IMG/VR virus record: IMGVR_UViG_3300037067_003476
Span: 1-64,000 of that record
From: a virus
Lineage: Duplodnaviria > Caudoviricetes
Reading direction: 5' to 3' (one strand)
Length of the DNA: 64,000 bases
Part shown: in pieces, positions 55,786 to 64,000 of the stretch
Layout: every line of letters begins with the position of its first letter
Position numbering within the stretch: position 1 is the stretch's first letter
Translations under genes and position numbers: made by a program
Notes under the pieces: generated by a model
The model's database searches: none
The model's input: the letters and a program-made list of their open reading frames with translations, nothing else
Told to the model about the DNA's origin: nothing

Positions 55786-56698
55786 GCTAAGCGCCAGTGC
55801 GATAAAGTCGTACAAGTTTTGTCCGTTTCAATACTTGATGTCCTATCTACTGGAATTTGAACCCCAGTCCGGAAAAGCGGCTGTGTTAGGGAGTATAGTT
55901 CATCAAGTATTCGAATGGATTGGATTATTGGTTAAGAGGGGCAAGACGATAGATGTTGAGTGGTTGATTGATCGTGCATGGGATATGTACATAGAAAACA
56001 ACGCGCACCTTGGATTAAAGAGGGTGAATCGAAATGGTGAGTCCGCTGACTTTAGATTGTGTAGAACATCTGTCAATGCGGTTCTGTCTAGCCCCCTGTA
56101 TAATCCGTGGACATTAAACATTCTGGATGTTGAAAAAAGATTTGATATATCTATGCCGGGTATCGCATGGACGACACCATCTGGTCAATTTCGTATTACT
56201 GGCTATATAGATATGGTTCACGAAATCAATCCGGATACAGTAGAAATAGTAGATTGGAAAACAGGTAGGCGCACCGATTATGGATCTATGAAGCAAAAGG
56301 ATTTCTATGATATGATGAGTGACGCCCAGGCTCGCATTTATCACTTTGCGGCCAATCAACTATATCCAAAGTACAAAAATATTCTAGTTACATTCTATTA
56401 CATCAATGACGGAGGACCGATTACGCTACCATATTCTGTTGACGATATGATTATGACAGTTGGCGCTTTGTGGAGAATATTCAAGAAGATCCAGACCGAA
56501 GAACTCGTTACCAGAAGTGTCTCGTGGAAGTGTAGTAAATTTTGCCAGTTTGGTCGTATGAGAGTTTGTGATTCTATTTGGAAGGATTTCTCGGATCACA
56601 ACCTAGCATTTGTAGCAGATAAATACCGCAAGATGTCTCTGGAAAAACAACAAGAGTATAAGGAAGATAATAATGGGAATATACGTACCACTTCATAA
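55772..56698 (+). CDS. PD-(D/E)XK exonuclease, RecB/Cas4-like
   Basis: LSAS....FCP, GYID, VDWKTG, QARIY, C...C...C. Confidence 0.88.
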   Translation: MNVCKLSASAIKSYKFCPFQYLMSYLLEFEPQSGKAAVLGSIVHQVFEWIGLLVKRGKTIDVEWLIDRAWDMYIENNAHLGLKRVNRNGESADFRLCRTSVNAVLSSPLYNPWTLNILDVEKRFDISMPGIAWTTPSGQFRITGYIDMVHEINPDTVEIVDWKTGRRTDYGSMKQKDFYDMMSDAQARIYHFAANQLYPKYKNILVTFYYINDGGPITLPYSVDDMIMTVGALWRIFKKIQTEELVTRSVSWKCSKFCQFGRMRVCDSIWKDFSDHNLAFVADKYRKMSLEKQQEYKEDNNGNIRTTS

Positions 56699-58982
56699 TC
56701 ACACACACTTTTCATTACTAGACGGATTGCCGTCTCCCAAGAGAATAATTGCCCGTGCCAAGGACTTGGGTTGTCCAGCCATAGCAATGACTGATCATGG
56801 CAACATATGTGGCATGGTGGACTTTCAAAGGGCTGGCAAGAAAAGCGGTGTAAAGTCCATAATTGGTATAGAGCTATATCTATGTAGACATGATCCATCG
56901 GTTCGCGACGAAACAAACCGACAGCATTTTCACCTTACTATTCTAGCGAAGAATCATGCTGGCGTAGAAACACTAATATCTCTTGTTAGCGAAATGAACA
57001 GACCAGACTGGTTCTATAGAAAGCCGAGGATTAATCTTGATTTTCTAAAACGATTTACGAGCGACGGAAACTTAATCTGTCTATCCGGGTGTCTAATAGG
57101 GGAGTTATCGCATTGTTTATTTAGCGACCACAAGGAAGCTTGTAAAATCAGTAATACTACAAACGACAAAAGCAAAGTAAGATTACTGTTAAAAGACAAC
57201 TGGAAGGATGTTGCCAACGAAGTCGTAGACAAATATATTGACGTGTTCGGTAAGGATAACTATTACATAGAATTGCAAGAAGAGGGTATGGCTGTACAAC
57301 AAATCGTCGTAGACTGTCTGCGAGATACTAGTAAAAACCTTGGAATACCATCGGTAGCCACATTAGACAGTCACTATGCATGCCGAGAAGATGCTGACGA
57401 CCAACGAATACTACTTTACGCACAGATGCATACAACCCAAGAAGAACAATCGCGTATCAGGGCCAGTGGCGGCGACACTATGGAATTTTTCTGCTCAGAT
57501 AAGTTTTACATATTTTCATACGACGAAATGACACAACACTACAGCCAACAAGAGATCGAAACGTCGCTAGAAATAGCGGACAAATGTGGTACCCCAAAAC
57601 TCGGCCGCGCTCCGTGTCTACCGAAATTCACGACAACCAAAGACAAAACATCTGACGAACTACTTCGGGACATGTGTATAAATGGTGCCAAACAAAAATT
57701 ATGTAACCTGGATTCCGACAAAAAACTGGAATATTGGAATAGGCTTAACACAGAACTAGATACCATCAAAGAAGCTAAGCTTGCGGACTACTTTCTAATT
57801 GTCGCAGACGTATGTAGATTTGTCGATCAGAACGATGGCCCAAGGGGAAAGGGGCGTGGCTCTGGTGCCGGGTCTATTGTGAACTACCTAATCGGTGTTA
57901 CCGATATAGACCCAATAACCTATGGCCTTTACTTTGAAAGATTCTATAACAACAGCCGTAACATACCACCACACTTTAATATTGGGGCCAAAGACTTTAT
58001 GACATGGCTATCCGACCTCGACCATATCATTACTGGCGACGAGATATCACAAGCACGAAAACAGATATCTTCTGTCGTGCATAAAAAACATCGTTCATAC
58101 GATATGGCCATGATTAAGAGCGAAGCCAAATGGATAGACGATAATAGTCCAAAGATGTGGTGTTATATAGCGAGCCGATTAGAAGATAGGGATTGTGTAA
58201 ATGACAACAATTCTCAGATCGCGTATGCGACTGGCATAACCAACGACATCAGAAGTCACCCGGTATCCACAGTAGATGCCCATATTAGTTTGCCAGATAT
58301 CGACACGGACATTGGCGTTGTATTTAGGTCTCGGGTTATCGACTATTTGAATGAAAAGTGGGGCAGTGATAAGGTGTCTCAAATTGTCACATTTGGTAGA
58401 TTACAGGGAAAGGCTGCTCTAAAAGAAGTATTTAGGGCACAGCCGAACACAGTCAAGCATCTAATGCAAGTGCGTGCAACAAAACTCGGCGAAGATCCAA
58501 GCAAGTGTATTATTAAACCGCATGATCTGTGCAACGAAATCACTAGTCATATCCCGGACGAAGCAGCCATTGCGGACGAACTTCAAGAAATGAGAGAGGA
58601 AACCGGAGATGATACATATGGAATTCTTCAGTGGGCAGTTGACAATATCGATCCCGTAAAAGAGGCATATAGGTGGTACAAACCGCTATTTGATCAGGCC
58701 ATGAGAATCGAAGGAACTAAGAAATCACAAAGCAAACATGCGGCGGGTATAGTTATCGCTGATCGACCAATCAGAGAACTTGTTCCTATGATGTATGATC
58801 CAAAAAGCAAGACGCAAATATGTGGTTTAGAAATGGGTGCAGCAGAAGCTATGGGGTGTGTGAAATTCGATTTTCTTGGAGTTACAGCGCTAGACAAAAT
58901 CTGGCATGCGATGAACCTCGTTAATGGTAAAGTGCAACAAATAGGTGGTTTCGGAGAATTTGTAGATGGTCAAATTGATTAG
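56673..58982 (+). CDS. dnaE: DNA polymerase III alpha, N-terminal part (PHP + palm)
   Basis: LHNHTHFSLLDG, TDHGN, GRGSGAGS, PDIDTD, HAAG, KFDFLG. Confidence 0.95.
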   Translation: MGIYVPLHNHTHFSLLDGLPSPKRIIARAKDLGCPAIAMTDHGNICGMVDFQRAGKKSGVKSIIGIELYLCRHDPSVRDETNRQHFHLTILAKNHAGVETLISLVSEMNRPDWFYRKPRINLDFLKRFTSDGNLICLSGCLIGELSHCLFSDHKEACKISNTTNDKSKVRLLLKDNWKDVANEVVDKYIDVFGKDNYYIELQEEGMAVQQIVVDCLRDTSKNLGIPSVATLDSHYACREDADDQRILLYAQMHTTQEEQSRIRASGGDTMEFFCSDKFYIFSYDEMTQHYSQQEIETSLEIADKCGTPKLGRAPCLPKFTTTKDKTSDELLRDMCINGAKQKLCNLDSDKKLEYWNRLNTELDTIKEAKLADYFLIVADVCRFVDQNDGPRGKGRGSGAGSIVNYLIGVTDIDPITYGLYFERFYNNSRNIPPHFNIGAKDFMTWLSDLDHIITGDEISQARKQISSVVHKKHRSYDMAMIKSEAKWIDDNSPKMWCYIASRLEDRDCVNDNNSQIAYATGITNDIRSHPVSTVDAHISLPDIDTDIGVVFRSRVIDYLNEKWGSDKVSQIVTFGRLQGKAALKEVFRAQPNTVKHLMQVRATKLGEDPSKCIIKPHDLCNEITSHIPDEAAIADELQEMREETGDDTYGILQWAVDNIDPVKEAYRWYKPLFDQAMRIEGTKKSQSKHAAGIVIADRPIRELVPMMYDPKSKTQICGLEMGAAEAMGCVKFDFLGVTALDKIWHAMNLVNGKVQQIGGFGEFVDGQID

Positions 58983-59409
58983 AGTTAACGATATATTTGA
59001 CATTGATGCAGACGCTTATGTTAACACAGTGAATTGTGTTGGTGTAATGGGAAAGGGCGTGGCCCTTGCCTTCAAAGCTAGGTATCCAGCGTTAATGACC
59101 CAATACAAAAGATACTGTCGCAATAATATGATCATGCCAGGAGAACTAATGATTTGGAGATCTCCGGATAAAAAGTGGGTTTTTAACGTTGCAACAAAAG
59201 ACCATTGGCGTAACCCATCAAGATATACATGGGTCAGACAGGGACTAAACGAGCTATATAAGTTTTTGGTAAACATGGATATTAAGACAATTGTTATTCC
59301 ACCGCTTGGTTGTGGTTGTGGTGGCCTTGACTGGAATGAAGTGTGGCCAATGATACACAGTTCTCTTAATGACCTGGATATGGAGGTACTTGTCATTGAG
59401 CCCAACTAA
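58966..59409 (+). CDS. Macrodomain protein (DarG-like ADP-ribosylhydrolase)
   Basis: VNTVNCVGVMGKGVALAFK, TKDHW, PPLGCGCGGLDW. Confidence 0.9.
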   Translation: MVKLIRVNDIFDIDADAYVNTVNCVGVMGKGVALAFKARYPALMTQYKRYCRNNMIMPGELMIWRSPDKKWVFNVATKDHWRNPSRYTWVRQGLNELYKFLVNMDIKTIVIPPLGCGCGGLDWNEVWPMIHSSLNDLDMEVLVIEPN

Positions 59410-59977
59410 AACGCAGTTACTGCTAAGCCTTTGTGAACAGATTGCTGGATGTAGGAAATGCGAATTATATCACAAAAGAACTAATTCTGTTTGTGGATAC
59501 GGAAACACAGAAGCGTCTATCATGTTTATTGGTGAGGCCCCAGGAGAACAAGAGGATAGTTGTGGTATACCATTTACTGGCAGGTGCGGAAAATACTTTA
59601 GGAAGTGTTTGCTAGATATTGGATTCGATACCACTCAGCATTTTATAACTAATGCAGTAAGATGTAGACCACCTAAAAATAGAACACCGAAGCCAAACGA
59701 AATAGAAAAGTGTCAACAATGGATACATGCCCAATTAGATATCATCCAGCCCAAAGTAATTGTTTGTGTTGGTAAGGTTGCTGCACAATCGATACTACGT
59801 ATTCCGTCTAGCCAATCATTGCAGTCTATAATGAACAGATGGCATAATCATTGGAAAACTGGGATTAAAACCAGGGCCATTTACCATCCTAGCTACATCA
59901 TGCAACACGGCCGTAAACACGAACGGGTTTTCAGGAATGATTTAATGGAGATATTGAACTATGTCCGAACCCATTAA
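59369..59977 (+). CDS. Uracil-DNA glycosylase family 4 (true start may be TTG 59396)
   Basis: CRKC, GEAPG, F.G, CRPP.NR.P, YHPS. Confidence 0.92.
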   Translation: MTWIWRYLSLSPTKTQLLLSLCEQIAGCRKCELYHKRTNSVCGYGNTEASIMFIGEAPGEQEDSCGIPFTGRCGKYFRKCLLDIGFDTTQHFITNAVRCRPPKNRTPKPNEIEKCQQWIHAQLDIIQPKVIVCVGKVAAQSILRIPSSQSLQSIMNRWHNHWKTGIKTRAIYHPSYIMQHGRKHERVFRNDLMEILNYVRTH

Positions 59978-61700
59978 ATTCGATAGATGTAATTGTTCTA
60001 TTGAACATGGCAAGTTTGATATACGTGAAATCCCATTGGATTGTCCAGTTGTGTGGGACTTGATCAGTAGTGGATATACTACTGGTATCTTTCAACTTGA
60101 AACAAAACTTGGACAAGACTGGGCTAGGAAAGTTAGACCGAGAAGTATTGAAGAGCTGTCGGATTTAATTAGCCTGATGCGGCCAGGGCCGTTAGAGTCA
60201 AATATGGCCCAAGATTATGTTGATATCAAATTCGGAAGAAAGCCATTGGAATATCTACATCCTGTACTAAAACCAATTCTTGAATCTACATATTCAGCTT
60301 TACTATATCAGGAACAAAGTCTTAAGATCGCTGTTGAGATTGCTGGATTTTCGCTGATACAAGCTGATTCACTTAGGAAAAGCCTCGGGAAGAAAGACTC
60401 TGTTTTAATGGCGAAAGCAAAAAAGGAATTTGTGGAGGGAGCAGTTAAAAAGGGACTTGTTACAAAATCTGTAGCAGAAGAAATTTTTGGATGGATTGAA
60501 AAGGGACAACGATATATCTTCAACAAATCACACAGTATCAGCTATGCATCATTAGGATATCAGACAGCATGGCTCAAGGCGCATTTCCCACATGAGTTCT
60601 ATGCATCCTACTTGACGTATGCCAAGTTTAAGGGGGATGAAAAAGAAGAGATATACAAGCTAATACAGGATGCCAGACTGTTTGGGATAGAAACTATTTC
60701 ACCAGACATTAGGCTTGGAAACCCTGAGTTTAGATTAGTTGATGGAAAAATTGCGTATGGTCTAGCAAATATTCGCGGTGTTGGTGATGGCGCAATCAAC
60801 AGGATACTTGGGGCTGGCCAGATAGATACATGGCAAAAGTTTCTAGATGCGGTCCCTGGTCTTCATAGAAACGTCGGTGAAGCCCTAATCAAATCCGGGG
60901 CATGCGATTGCTATGGATTGTCAAGATCTCGCATGATAGCTGAATTACAAGCAGTACTTGGTACAAATGTGCGAGACGAACAAGGGGAGAGGGTGGATAT
61001 CAAGGGATTGACGGATCGGGAAAAGGATTGGTTCTTCACCAATTTTCACAAATTTGGTAGCACGGCGAGTACATTACAGGGAATGATGAATATACAGAAT
61101 ATTGTGCCGGTTGCTAGGTTGACCAAAAAACAGGTTATTGAAACTATACTAGAATTGAATGGCGATATTAAGAGAGATGATATATGTAAGATGAAACGCG
61201 CAGAACTCAATGATATGTTAAGGGAACTTGGGTATGATCCTGGTGAACAAATACGTATTTCCCCTTCTAGAAGATCGGCGATACTTGATAAGATCAAACA
61301 GCTTGATGCGGTTTTTGAAGATACCCCAAGGGTTAAGGCTGAGGCTGAAAAGTATTTTCTTGGAATATCGTTATCGTGCTCACCCGTTGATGGTATTGGG
61401 GATGATCGGGCGACCCATACATGCGTGGATGTTGCCAGGGCATTGAGTGGAGAAGAATGTAGGGTTTGCGCAATTACAGATATGGTTAAGCATACAAAAA
61501 CAAAAAAGGGAAAGAATCCTGGTTCTCCGATGTGCTTCGTGACATTATCGGACTCCACTTACTCATTAGACCATGCTGTTGTATTTCCTGATGCATATCA
61601 GAAAAACAAGGATTTGTGTACTGAAAATTTAATCGTGTTGGTAACAGGGACAAAAAGAGACGGTTCTTTTATTGTCTCTGATATGAAAAAGTTGATATAG
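59961..61700 (+). CDS. dnaE: DNA polymerase III alpha, C-terminal part (fingers, HhH, OB)
   Basis: GIFQLE, RPGP, YQEQ, FNKSH..SY, IRGVG, EKYFLG, OB fold MCFVTLSD. Confidence 0.95.
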   Translation: MSEPIKFDRCNCSIEHGKFDIREIPLDCPVVWDLISSGYTTGIFQLETKLGQDWARKVRPRSIEELSDLISLMRPGPLESNMAQDYVDIKFGRKPLEYLHPVLKPILESTYSALLYQEQSLKIAVEIAGFSLIQADSLRKSLGKKDSVLMAKAKKEFVEGAVKKGLVTKSVAEEIFGWIEKGQRYIFNKSHSISYASLGYQTAWLKAHFPHEFYASYLTYAKFKGDEKEEIYKLIQDARLFGIETISPDIRLGNPEFRLVDGKIAYGLANIRGVGDGAINRILGAGQIDTWQKFLDAVPGLHRNVGEALIKSGACDCYGLSRSRMIAELQAVLGTNVRDEQGERVDIKGLTDREKDWFFTNFHKFGSTASTLQGMMNIQNIVPVARLTKKQVIETILELNGDIKRDDICKMKRAELNDMLRELGYDPGEQIRISPSRRSAILDKIKQLDAVFEDTPRVKAEAEKYFLGISLSCSPVDGIGDDRATHTCVDVARALSGEECRVCAITDMVKHTKTKKGKNPGSPMCFVTLSDSTYSLDHAVVFPDAYQKNKDLCTENLIVLVTGTKRDGSFIVSDMKKLI

Positions 61701-62199: not shown

Positions 62200-63696
62200 A
62201 TGGGTAAAAAACGACTACTGTTTGTAGGCGAAGCAAGTTATCTAGCTACTGGTTTTTCTACATATTGGAATGAAGTCATTAAGCGAATAAACGCAACCGG
62301 TAGGTTTGAGGTAGCGGAATTTGGTTCATATGCTGGTGACTCGGATCCAAGAAATCAGCATGTTCCATGGAAATTCTACTCTAACGCCCCAGACCCAAAT
62401 GACCAAGCAGCCAACCAAGCATATCATTCTAGGCACACCAATCAGTTTGGTGAGTGGCGACTTAATGATGTATTGCTAGATTGGAAGCCCGACACACTTC
62501 TCTTATTGCGTGATTTTTGGATGGATGAGTTCGTATTAAGATCTCCTCTTAGGAGTAACTTCAAGGTTATTTGGATGCCGACCATAGACGGCGCACCCCA
62601 ACGCAAACTCTGGGTCGACGCATACAAGCAGTGCGATGCGATAATGACATATTCCCAATGGGGTAAAAATCTACTTGAAAAAGAATATGACCTAAAGGTA
62701 ACTGCGGTAGCATCTCCTGGAGCGGAATTAGATTTGTTCAAGCCAGTTCCAGACAAGGGGGCGCATAAAGCTAAACACGGGATAAACCCTTCGTCATTCA
62801 TTATTGGTACGGTAATGCGAAATCAAAAACGCAAGTTGTATGTAGACCTAATAGAAGCATTCGCCGAATGGCTACGCTCATCAAAGAAAAGTTCTCATCT
62901 AGATATTGCGAAGAAAACGTATTTGTACCTACACACCAGTTATCCAGATGTCGGATATGACATTGGTGACGCAATACAAAAATTCAAGGTTGGCAACAAG
63001 GTACTAATGACATATTTATGTTCTGCTTGTGGAACTGCGTATCCATCATTCTTCTCCGGAGAATGGACGCATTGTCGAAGATGTGGTAAGTTAGCGGCAC
63101 ATCCACCGAACGCCAACCACTCCGTTGGGAGGGATGTTCTTGCTAGTATATACAATCTCTTTGATGTGTATGTACAGTATTCAATTTGTTTGCACCCAGA
63201 TACCCCAATATTGTTAAGTGACTACACACATAAACGGATAGCAGACATTAAATCTGGTGATAAAATTATAAACGGAAATGGGGATACCGTTGATGTTGAT
63301 TGGTGTAAACAAACCAGCAATACGTCATCTACGGTCGAAATAACGACACACGAAAATCCCAAACCAGTCATAGTTACCAAGGACCATCGTGTTCTAACTA
63401 TGAACGAAAATGGTGAATTTGTATTTATAGAAGCCAAGGATCTTCTGAATAAATGGGTCGTTTGCCCAGCCAATAACGCCAAGATTTTTGACGCTATCAA
63501 GATACATAACCCAAGGAAGAATAGTAAATACAGGAAAAAATACAAAGACTATCTTTTGATAAAGGTTAAGTCGGTCGAACCAAGCGACTATACCGGCCCT
63601 GTCTACGATCTTGCGGTTGTTCCGCCGAAAGGGGGTGATGCCAACTCTCGCAGTTTCGTTGCGAACCATTTCGTAACACATAACTGTGAGGGTTAA
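62200..63696 (+). CDS. GT4 glycosyltransferase with zinc-ribbon insert and intein; ends at TAA inside the catalytic motif
   Basis: TGF, RDFW, RNQKRK, YNLFDVYVQYSI-[intein]-CEG*. Confidence 0.88.
   Translation: MGKKRLLFVGEASYLATGFSTYWNEVIKRINATGRFEVAEFGSYAGDSDPRNQHVPWKFYSNAPDPNDQAANQAYHSRHTNQFGEWRLNDVLLDWKPDTLLLLRDFWMDEFVLRSPLRSNFKVIWMPTIDGAPQRKLWVDAYKQCDAIMTYSQWGKNLLEKEYDLKVTAVASPGAELDLFKPVPDKGAHKAKHGINPSSFIIGTVMRNQKRKLYVDLIEAFAEWLRSSKKSSHLDIAKKTYLYLHTSYPDVGYDIGDAIQKFKVGNKVLMTYLCSACGTAYPSFFSGEWTHCRRCGKLAAHPPNANHSVGRDVLASIYNLFDVYVQYSICLHPDTPILLSDYTHKRIADIKSGDKIINGNGDTVDVDWCKQTSNTSSTVEITTHENPKPVIVTKDHRVLTMNENGEFVFIEAKDLLNKWVVCPANNAKIFDAIKIHNPRKNSKYRKKYKDYLLIKVKSVEPSDYTGPVYDLAVVPPKGGDANSRSFVANHFVTHNCEG
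63187..63684 (+). mobile_element. Mini-intein (166 aa, no homing endonuclease)
   Basis: Block A CLHPDTPI, block B VTKDHRVL, block F VYDLAV, block G FVANHFVTHN followed by Cys+1. Confidence 0.93.
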
Positions 63697-64000
63697 CTAG
63701 GCTGGGGGATGCCTATAATCGAGAGTATGAGTTGCGCTGTCCCTGCAATGGTGGTAAACTATTCAGCGATGGAAGATCATGCAAAAATGCCGGGTGGTAT
63801 CCCAATTAATGTTGGAAGATACTTTTATGAAGCTGTAATCGAAACGGAACAAAGACGGGCATTGCCAGACAATAAACATTTTGGAGAACAACTAAACCGT
63901 ATTGTCAAGATGAAACCTGGACAAAGAGAAGAATTAGCTAGACGAACACATAATTATATCGTTGAGCCAGCAGAAGTATTCGGCCAAACAGAAAAATTAC
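63697..64000 (+). CDS. In-frame continuation of the GT4 (LGWGMPIIESMSCAVP...), 3' partial
   Basis: Same frame as 62200, open to the window end; completes the EGxGxPxxE motif. Confidence 0.85.

Follow-up and report, generated by a model that had tools for sequence, protein, structure and literature searches.

A stop-led gap beside an intein in phage glycosyltransferase genes: a candidate natural family of short stop-hops

Natural cases of translational bypassing are known for T4 gene 60 with its homologs and for a single lineage of yeast mitochondria. Short stop-hops have been demonstrated only in synthetic form: in E. coli reporters with matched codons on either side of a stop codon, the peptidyl-tRNA re-pairs a few bases further on, such that 6-9 nt specify one amino acid (Weiss et al. 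1987, reviewed in PMC5009743), and the same review, dating from 2016, knew of no natural stop-hops (PMC5009743). Refolding of a 5' stem-loop has been proposed to propel the gene 60 bypass (bioRxiv 10.1101/2022.08.31.505936), and a stable refolding hairpin located just upstream stimulates forward slippage of E. coli 70S ribosomes at CUU-UGA (PMC6321510). In this study, we describe a glycosyltransferase gene of an uncultured tailed phage in which nine bases led by a stop codon interrupt a conserved motif three codons downstream of an intein. The gene begins in the first 64 kb (64,000 nt, hereafter the window) of the 143,155-nt IMG/VR virus record IMGVR_UViG_3300037067_003476. We lean, by somewhat more than an even chance, toward the reading that the nine bases are crossed by a short programmed stop-hop, in which peptidyl-tRNA would re-pair with the message (+9 in the window), driven by a refolding hairpin.

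At 63685-63711 the window reads TGT GAG GGT TAA CTA GGC TGG GGG ATG, and resuming at TGG 63703 gives back CEGWGMP exactly. The nine bases are missing from intein-less as well as intein-bearing homologs, which read CEG(W/F/..)GMP, so that the window carries exactly three additional codons, placed inside the CEG(W/F)GMP motif of the uninterrupted homologs after its first Gly codon. An earlier note on this DNA, made from the letters alone, had described a nine-base, stop-led insert between Gly codons of a GT4 motif, had stated that its deletion restores the motif and had argued that a point mutation cannot explain the site; the comparison with homologs lacking the insert bears out all three statements. 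The note had also recognized an intein three codons upstream of the stop, and Cys-Glu-Gly does separate the intein end at 63684 from TAA 63694. Its claim of an intact downstream frame likewise holds, as the same frame runs open from ATG 63709 through 230 codons up to genome position 64401. The same nine bases with the same intein are present in two separately assembled relatives, IMG/VR 3300021603_000005 and 3300020814_000207 (L002/L003), which differ from the window by TGA for TAA and by GGT for GGG two codons later and share 91-96% protein identity with it. The insert is therefore no assembly artefact of the window record and is confirmed by three independent assemblies. Taken alone, the 9-mer of the insert is unremarkable in the window (1 match against 0.84 expected), and about 15 chance cases of a codon, a stop and a matched codon between long open frames occur genome-wide, all of them at ordinary gene borders; a genome-wide scan of the phage for such layouts found no second hop candidate. 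Since both the 9-mer and the layout also arise by chance, the significance of the insert lies in its place within a conserved motif and in the comparative pattern.

The part of the gene downstream of the stop (the C-part, or second open reading frame, ORF2) has 404 relatives in a representative search, and the glycosyltransferase family comprises more than 400 metagenome relatives, many of which, at lengths of about 900 and 1300 residues, carry one or two inteins. No relatives of the family were found in 50,697 GenBank phage records at E <= 1e-5. The uninterrupted homologs P0024, P0031 and P0016 match Pfam Glycos_transf_1 (PF00534) with 35-42 bits exactly over the interrupted motif; the C-part of the window alone reaches 13.5 bits against this profile, whose cut-off is 26.4. 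An AlphaFold2 model of P0024 (predicted local distance difference test, pLDDT, 94.9) folds into the two Rossmann domains of GT-B, and its Foldseek matches are the PBCV glycosyltransferase 3oy2 (E 7e-19), GlgM, MshA, PimB', BshA and the GT4 protein BA1558, so that the modelled fold has the GT-B architecture of retaining GT4-type enzymes. In this model the break site lies in a loop that joins strand 328-331 to helix 340-347; it is within the C-terminal Rossmann domain and not at a domain border. The E-x7-E motif is conserved at 88-93% in 57 homologs; as encoded in the window, its two Glu codons are split by the stop and three extra codons, and the motif is intact only if the nine bases are skipped.

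Interrupted alleles were searched for with ORF2 queries in large protein collections, and the DNA upstream of matches starting at the motif Met was read. The intein-less homologs L004, L006, L007, L009 and L011 read ...YSICEG(W/F)GMP... uninterrupted, and among 80 family loci fetched from IMG/VR, 74 were intein-less and uninterrupted, four were intein-bearing and uninterrupted, and two, the close relatives of the window, were interrupted. An intein at the same site is followed by an uninterrupted motif in L008, L033, L034, L041, L074, L115, L116, L119 and L121; in L008 it is a full-size LAGLIDADG intein, after which CEGFGMP is read without an insert. No interruption was found among the intein-less alleles seen (74 IMG/VR loci and more), and no simple nonsense allele, such as TGG changed to TGA, was found in the search. 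The nine interrupted alleles represent at least five break types (2, 5/6, 6, 8 and 8/9 nt; Table 1), and all breaks lie 3-5 codons 3' of an intein. In all nine, an in-frame stop (TAA, TGA or TAG) stands directly 3' of the last correct codon, which is always a Gly (GGY) or a Leu (CUY) codon, and removal of the gap leaves a complete CEGxGMP. An identical or synonymous codon lies directly 5' of the resumption point in seven of the nine (the window, L003, L018, L021, L025, L026 and L112). These alleles show that several independent break types share the stop, the matched codon and the complete motif.

The break types also bear on stop-codon readthrough, by which a near-cognate tRNA at TAA would add X-Leu-Gly inside the motif. 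The window insert is in frame, as readthrough requires, and its stop is followed by C, which makes a weak termination context in E. coli. However, readthrough is excluded as a general mechanism because L015, L025, L109 and L112 are out of frame, and it fits poorly with the use of three different stop codons and the lack of a phage suppressor tRNA; it would moreover lengthen the E-x7-E motif by three residues. We consider it hardly credible for the window.

Further candidates were examined in the same collections. P0003, P0045, P0094 and P0175, the first three of which start at the motif Met, were rejected as interrupted alleles, being contig-edge artefacts of intein-less genes. In the contig of P0009, a LAGLIDADG-intein ORF1 ends 13 nt before ORF2 in another frame, as judged from the ORF positions. 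P0011 (19-kb contig) and P0166 (21-kb contig) are ORF2-like proteins starting 13-21 residues downstream of the motif Met, and may be interrupted alleles without an ATG at the motif. A search of viral contigs with the junction DNA pattern returned only the two known relatives and one chance match, and in metagenome contigs the DNA pattern gave two chance matches in unrelated genes and the junction protein pattern gave none. P0162 was not found in GTDB genomes, nor P0011 in IMG/VR.

The intein of the window is a mini-intein that matches Pfam PF14890 (Intein_splicing) with 44.8 bits (cut-off 35.8). It carries the class 1 hallmarks, with Cys 63184 (start Cys-Leu-His-Pro-Asp-Thr), His-Asn at 63679-63684 and the +1 Cys at 63685, and is predicted to splice. 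Full-size LAGLIDADG inteins occupy the same site in L008, L015, L021 and L109. Compared with L003, the ratio of nonsynonymous to synonymous substitution rates (dN/dS) is 0.018 for the N-extein (dS 0.75) and 0.059 for the C-part (dS ~1), which indicates that the gene is not decaying and that both halves have long been under strong purifying selection since the insert arose; for the intein, dN is 0.106 and dN/dS is not calculable as synonymous sites are saturated. The insert is real and old, and both exteins and the intein are under purifying selection. Relaxed selection downstream of the stop, which the earlier note had named as the mark of a simple pseudogene, is thus not seen in the C-part. 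A second full-size LAGLIDADG intein lies at about residue 103 of the N-extein (KPDCV / VHN-CQI) in a close relative (L005:2500-4000, IMG/VR 3300021603_000005), with no stop or gap after it; the window lacks this intein and reads TLLLL there.

In a quick maximum-likelihood search on 96 C-parts, the nine interrupted alleles require at least six changes on well-supported branches, and their nearest extein relatives are intein-less or fused. Two families of interrupted alleles, A (the window, L003 and L015) and B (L018, L021 and L109), each have a homologous intein 3' end and the same gap position. Since they share these despite their scattered exteins, intein and gap were gained or lost together, and the break is confined to the neighborhood of inteins and appears to travel with them. 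Such a distribution could also suit a crippled or useless gene copy that persists by linkage to a selfish homing intein, given that the break occurs only next to inteins and that intein and gap are scattered among intein-less relatives on the extein tree, as for a homing cassette. The strong purifying selection on both exteins and the intein speaks against such a copy, as do the intact ORF2 in 9/9 interrupted alleles, at a mutual protein identity of just 44-62%, and the evolution of a dedicated hairpin; moreover, the window intein is without a homing drive of its own because its endonuclease has been lost. A useless copy is therefore very unlikely, though marginally less so than readthrough.

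The hairpin predicted in the window mRNA consists of an outer 13-bp stem (63643-63655 with 63682-63694) and an inner 8-bp stem (63658-63665 with 63670-63677), with a minimum free energy (mfe) of -28 to -32 kcal/mol and a z-score of -4.5 to -5.0 across folds. All nine interrupted alleles have such a hairpin, formed between the Cys-Glu-Gly codons and a stretch of the intein reading frame 35-50 nt further upstream; it ends 0-4 nt 5' of the stop and has an mfe of -21 to -32 kcal/mol with z-scores of -2.1 to -6.1. Nine uninterrupted intein alleles have no comparable hairpin (mfe -6 to -15, z -0.8 to +0.8), the nine alleles on either side representing about five and seven independent lineages, respectively. 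The 3' end of the hairpin follows the stop and not the ATG, from which it lies 4-14 nt away, and its 5' arm varies in sequence between intein lineages. In family A, two compensatory pairs and several one-sided changes in L015 keep the pairing, and in family B 98.6% of stem cells are paired, with one compensatory and six one-sided changes. All hairpins include G-U pairs (2-6 each), and in 9/9 folding of the antisense strand is weaker, which points to a function in mRNA. Nucleotide identity between the window and L003 peaks over the ~90 nt before the ATG (43-45/45 compared with 27-33/45 in the flanks), and that of an independent pair, L021 and L109, also peaks at the hairpin and junction (50-51/60 compared with 28-40 in the remaining intein).

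A near-perfect Shine-Dalgarno (SD)-like element lies 55-60 nt 5' of the stop, inside the intein reading frame (window 63628-63639; L021:2417-2428; equivalent positions in L018 and L109). In the window it reads AAAGGGGGTGAT and is predicted to pair with the 3' end of 16S rRNA at -18.1 kcal/mol. Both the hairpin 5' arm and the SD-like element (AAAGGGGGTGAT or GAAGGAGGTGAC, about -18 kcal/mol) of families A and B come from a 7-residue intein insertion, which is present only in inteins of interrupted alleles (the window, L003, L015, L018, L021 and L109) and in 0/25 fused intein alleles. The family B element is also predicted to pair with an anti-SD-like stretch just 3' of the ORF2 ATG. As a clean marker of interruption the element was rejected, two uninterrupted alleles also reaching -12.6 kcal/mol.

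The folds also touch on removal of the gap at the RNA level, either by editing or by cutting and ligating at a bulge, and on the related possibility of a footprint left by a lost group I intron. In some folds (L021 and L109) the skipped bases do bulge out between the hairpin and an outer helix; this outer helix is inconsistent across the other alleles and was rejected as a general feature. No RNA-removal system acting on gaps of 2-9 nt is known in phages. In the surrounding 4 kb there is no Rfam match up to E = 1, no intron is present at the site in more than 100 homologous loci, and the inserts are just 2-9 nt long and unlike in sequence, for which reasons an intron remnant finds no support. 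We regard removal at the RNA level, together with an intron footprint, as the least likely of all explanations considered. The earlier note had left three options, a minimal stop-hop, a group I intron remnant and a restart at ATG 63709, and had proposed a search of homologs for uninterrupted or full-intron alleles. Uninterrupted alleles exist and full-intron alleles did not turn up among those loci; of the options, the intron remnant is unsupported and the stop-hop is best supported, by a geometry that recurs in independent alleles, out-of-frame ones among them, and by a hairpin confined to interrupted alleles.

If the gap is crossed by a stop-hop, the gene would encode one GT-B (GT4-like) glycosyltransferase that needs two repairs, first the hop and then protein splicing. 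While GGU (63691, Gly) occupies the P site and the stop codon UAA the A site, peptidyl-tRNA-Gly would unpair, the mRNA would slide by 9 nt and the peptidyl-tRNA-Gly would re-pair at GGC (63700). Decoding would resume at UGG to give ...YSI-[intein]-CEGWGMPIIE..., protein splicing would remove the mini-intein, and hop and splicing together would yield the junction peptide YSICEGWGMPIIE. The 52-nt hairpin, built from the Cys-Glu-Gly codons on its 3' side and from intein coding sequence on its 5' side, could therefore re-zip behind the ribosome, and this re-zipping would drive the forward slide. In the other alleles, a Gly or Leu peptidyl-tRNA would re-pair 2-9 nt downstream, again with the stop in the A site. 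From the comparison of alleles, we infer that a single polypeptide is probably made across the gap and that the hairpin probably acts as stimulator of the hop. A hop would explain why the stop directly follows the take-off codon, why the triplets match (including those of the out-of-frame L025), why the motif is retained and why simple nonsense alleles are missing. It would also account for a take-off limited to Gly and Leu codons and for the hairpin keeping step with the stop. T4 gene 60, prfB and the synthetic stop-hops use take-off codons of these same classes, GGY and CUY (PMC5009743). The absence of split intein-less alleles and of simple nonsense alleles would be unexpected if mere splitting of the enzyme were tolerated. 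For the broader proposal that phage glycosyltransferase inteins carry a miniature bypass cassette, composed of a hairpin in the intein 3' end and a stop-led extein gap of 2-9 nt, we see the chances as evenly balanced.

The main rival to a stop-hop is termination at TAA 63694 followed by restart of the same ribosome at ATG 63709. This would give a two-piece enzyme assembled from an N-piece (N-extein, intein and Cys-Glu-Gly, later spliced) and a 230-residue C-piece, and the hairpin would then serve either to guide the ribosome forward after termination or to reserve ORF2 translation for ribosomes that had already read ORF1. An ATG, that of the motif Met, lies 2-12 nt 3' of the stop in 9/9 interrupted alleles (12 nt in the window), and Met occupies this motif position in 47% of the intein-less homologs, Ile being another residue natural to the family there. 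Restart is a common mechanism, is independent of frame and therefore covers the 2-, 5- and 8-nt gaps. It also accommodates a variable spacer between stop and ATG that tolerates 1-nt deletions (L015 and L109), it has a strong SD-like element just 5' of the hairpin, and ORF2 is itself overlap-coupled to the next gene. Sliding of 70S ribosomes and re-initiation on polycistronic mRNA are established (PMC11194080).

Several of these observations, with others, count against a hop. In L015 and L109, the 1-nt deletion leaves AGC as landing triplet, which pairs at two of three positions, and the landing triplet is the most variable element (GGT/GGA/AGC in family B, GGC/AGC in family A), so that the variability and the deletions together have the look of a free, untranslated spacer. 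Both the L026 and the L021 type resemble the outcome of a 6-nt duplication and a single nonsense change, and in L112 a CT is duplicated; because these three types look like tandem duplications, codon matching alone appears to be weaker evidence than it seems at first. Unstimulated stop-hops in E. coli are inefficient (PMC5009743). With an ATG this close to the stop, and with stop/start overlaps coupling neighboring genes of the operon, a degree of restart is very likely whichever reading holds. Moreover, as the search relied on ORF2 proteins starting at the motif Met, it would have overlooked interrupted alleles that lack an ATG there.

Restart nevertheless leaves much unexplained: that all breaks are insertions, that the motif codons are complete and the stop exactly placed, that the break is linked to an intein, and that neither a simple nonsense allele nor a split intein-less allele was seen. 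The window C-piece would lack the Trp-Gly of the motif, and the chain would be broken inside the Rossmann core. No SD is found consistently at 5-10 nt from the ATG, and folding of the hairpin would leave the SD-like element 13-18 nt from it; the hairpin 3' end tracks the stop, not the ATG. On balance, we consider restart a serious possibility, although clearly less probable than the stop-hop.

The glycosyltransferase gene starts at 62200, directly 3' of the SSB gene, in a genome with a G+C content of 41%. ORF2 is coupled to the next gene by a stop/start overlap, and a run of further glycosyltransferase genes follows (L001:2902-3999, genome beyond 64401); the order of SSB, interrupted glycosyltransferase and other glycosyltransferases is also kept in L015, L021 and L109. 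The phage genome has five tRNA genes (Lys, two Met, Leu(UAA) and Glu), among which there is no suppressor tRNA and no tRNA-Gly. Upstream, the DnaE-type polymerase (window 56673-61700) is present as two ORFs of 769 and 579 codons in the ORF list, with a macrodomain gene and a uracil-DNA-glycosylase-like gene between them.

Table 1. Features of the interrupted glycosyltransferase gene (positions in the window) and junction layouts of the interrupted alleles.
Feature or allele	Position	Strand	Description and basis	Gap or proposed shift
N-extein of glycosyltransferase	62200..63183	+	328 codons, end ...VQYSI; ORF list and translation; PHROG 2170 glycosyltransferase, E 8e-10	
Mini-intein without endonuclease domain	63184..63684	+	167 codons; Pfam Intein_splicing, E 1.4e-11	
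Shine-Dalgarno-like element AAAGGGGGTGAT	63628..63639	+	encoded by the 7-residue intein insertion KGGDxxS	
Predicted mRNA hairpin	63643..63694	+	folding; 3' arm is the Asn-Cys-Glu-Gly codons and the first stop base	
First three C-extein codons, Cys-Glu-Gly	63685..63693	+	sequence and homolog comparison; GGT 63691-63693 is the proposed take-off codon	
Bases proposed to be skipped: stop TAA (63694-63696) and CTA	63694..63699	+	in no uninterrupted homolog	
GGC, proposed landing codon	63700..63702	+	synonymous with take-off GGT	
Remaining C-extein (Trp-Gly-Met-Pro...)	63703..64000, on to genome position 64401	+	open frame; possible restart at ATG 63709-63711	
Window, L003			GGT-stop-CTA-GGC, then TGG	+9
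L015/L016			GGT-TAG-TT-AGC, then TTC GGC ATG	8 nt
L021/L022			GGT-TGA-GGT, then ATG	+6
L018			GGT-TGA-GGA, then ATG	+6
L109/L110/L111			GGT-TG-AGC, then ATG	5 nt
L025			GGC-TGA-AT-GGT, then TTT GGA ATG	+8, out of frame
L026/L027/L028			CTT-TGA-CTT, then GGA ATG	+6
L112			CTC-TAG; CT duplication allows CTC re-pairing to CTA	+2

Full-text literature searches found no paper on intein-linked short hops, which suggests that hopping at this short range is unreported in nature. If the stop-hop reading is true, these alleles would form a natural family of short stop-hops, with an enzyme that needs both recoding and protein splicing. The gaps of +2 to +9, the varied take-off codons and the co-varying hairpins would then be a ready series for testing sliding driven by upstream structure, and genes in phage metagenomes that look 'split' or 'pseudo' next to inteins and homing endonucleases could be whole, which bears on their annotation. 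In its strict link to an intein the gap resembles the MobA/gene 60 cassette, and one may ask how the mobile element benefits from it.

Among the closest described systems are the synthetic stop-hops, whose exact arrangement is shared by L026 (CTT-TGA-CTT) and L021 (GGT-TGA-GGT). Those hops were engineered and are of low efficiency without dedicated stimulators, whereas the phage sites are natural, conserved and equipped with a hairpin, and include the out-of-frame +2, +5 and +8 gaps. The prfB (RF2) +1 site (PMC6321510) resembles them in having CUU or GGU in the P site, a stop in the A site and GAGG-like bases just before the take-off codon, and in that a duplex directly upstream, either SD:anti-SD or a hairpin, promotes movement in the 3' direction; it differs in shifting by 1 nt onto an overlapping codon and in serving RF2 autoregulation, whereas here re-pairing would mostly be to non-overlapping codons 5-9 nt away. 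Phage genes that have been split and remain coupled, such as Topo II and NrdA with their MobA/MobE insertions, likewise have a conserved domain cut beside a homing element with the ORFs close together. Unlike the present alleles, which have gaps of 2-9 nt, no tails and all motif codons kept, their halves have acquired new C- and N-terminal tails and flank an endonuclease gene. The 50-nt bypass of T4 gene 60 (bioRxiv 10.1101/2022.08.31.505936) shares a Gly take-off codon followed by a stop, together with a landing codon that matches it, a structured mRNA region upstream of take-off that is proposed to propel sliding, and a gap within an invariant motif of a phage enzyme. Its gap is linked to a mobile element based on a homing endonuclease and has been retained after endonuclease loss, as is the case here, although the element of gene 60/MobA is a free-standing endonuclease that splits the gene and here it is an intein. 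The two further differ in the length of the gap (50 nt against 2-9 nt) and in the take-off stem-loop inside the gap, which is absent here, and they have no sequence homology.

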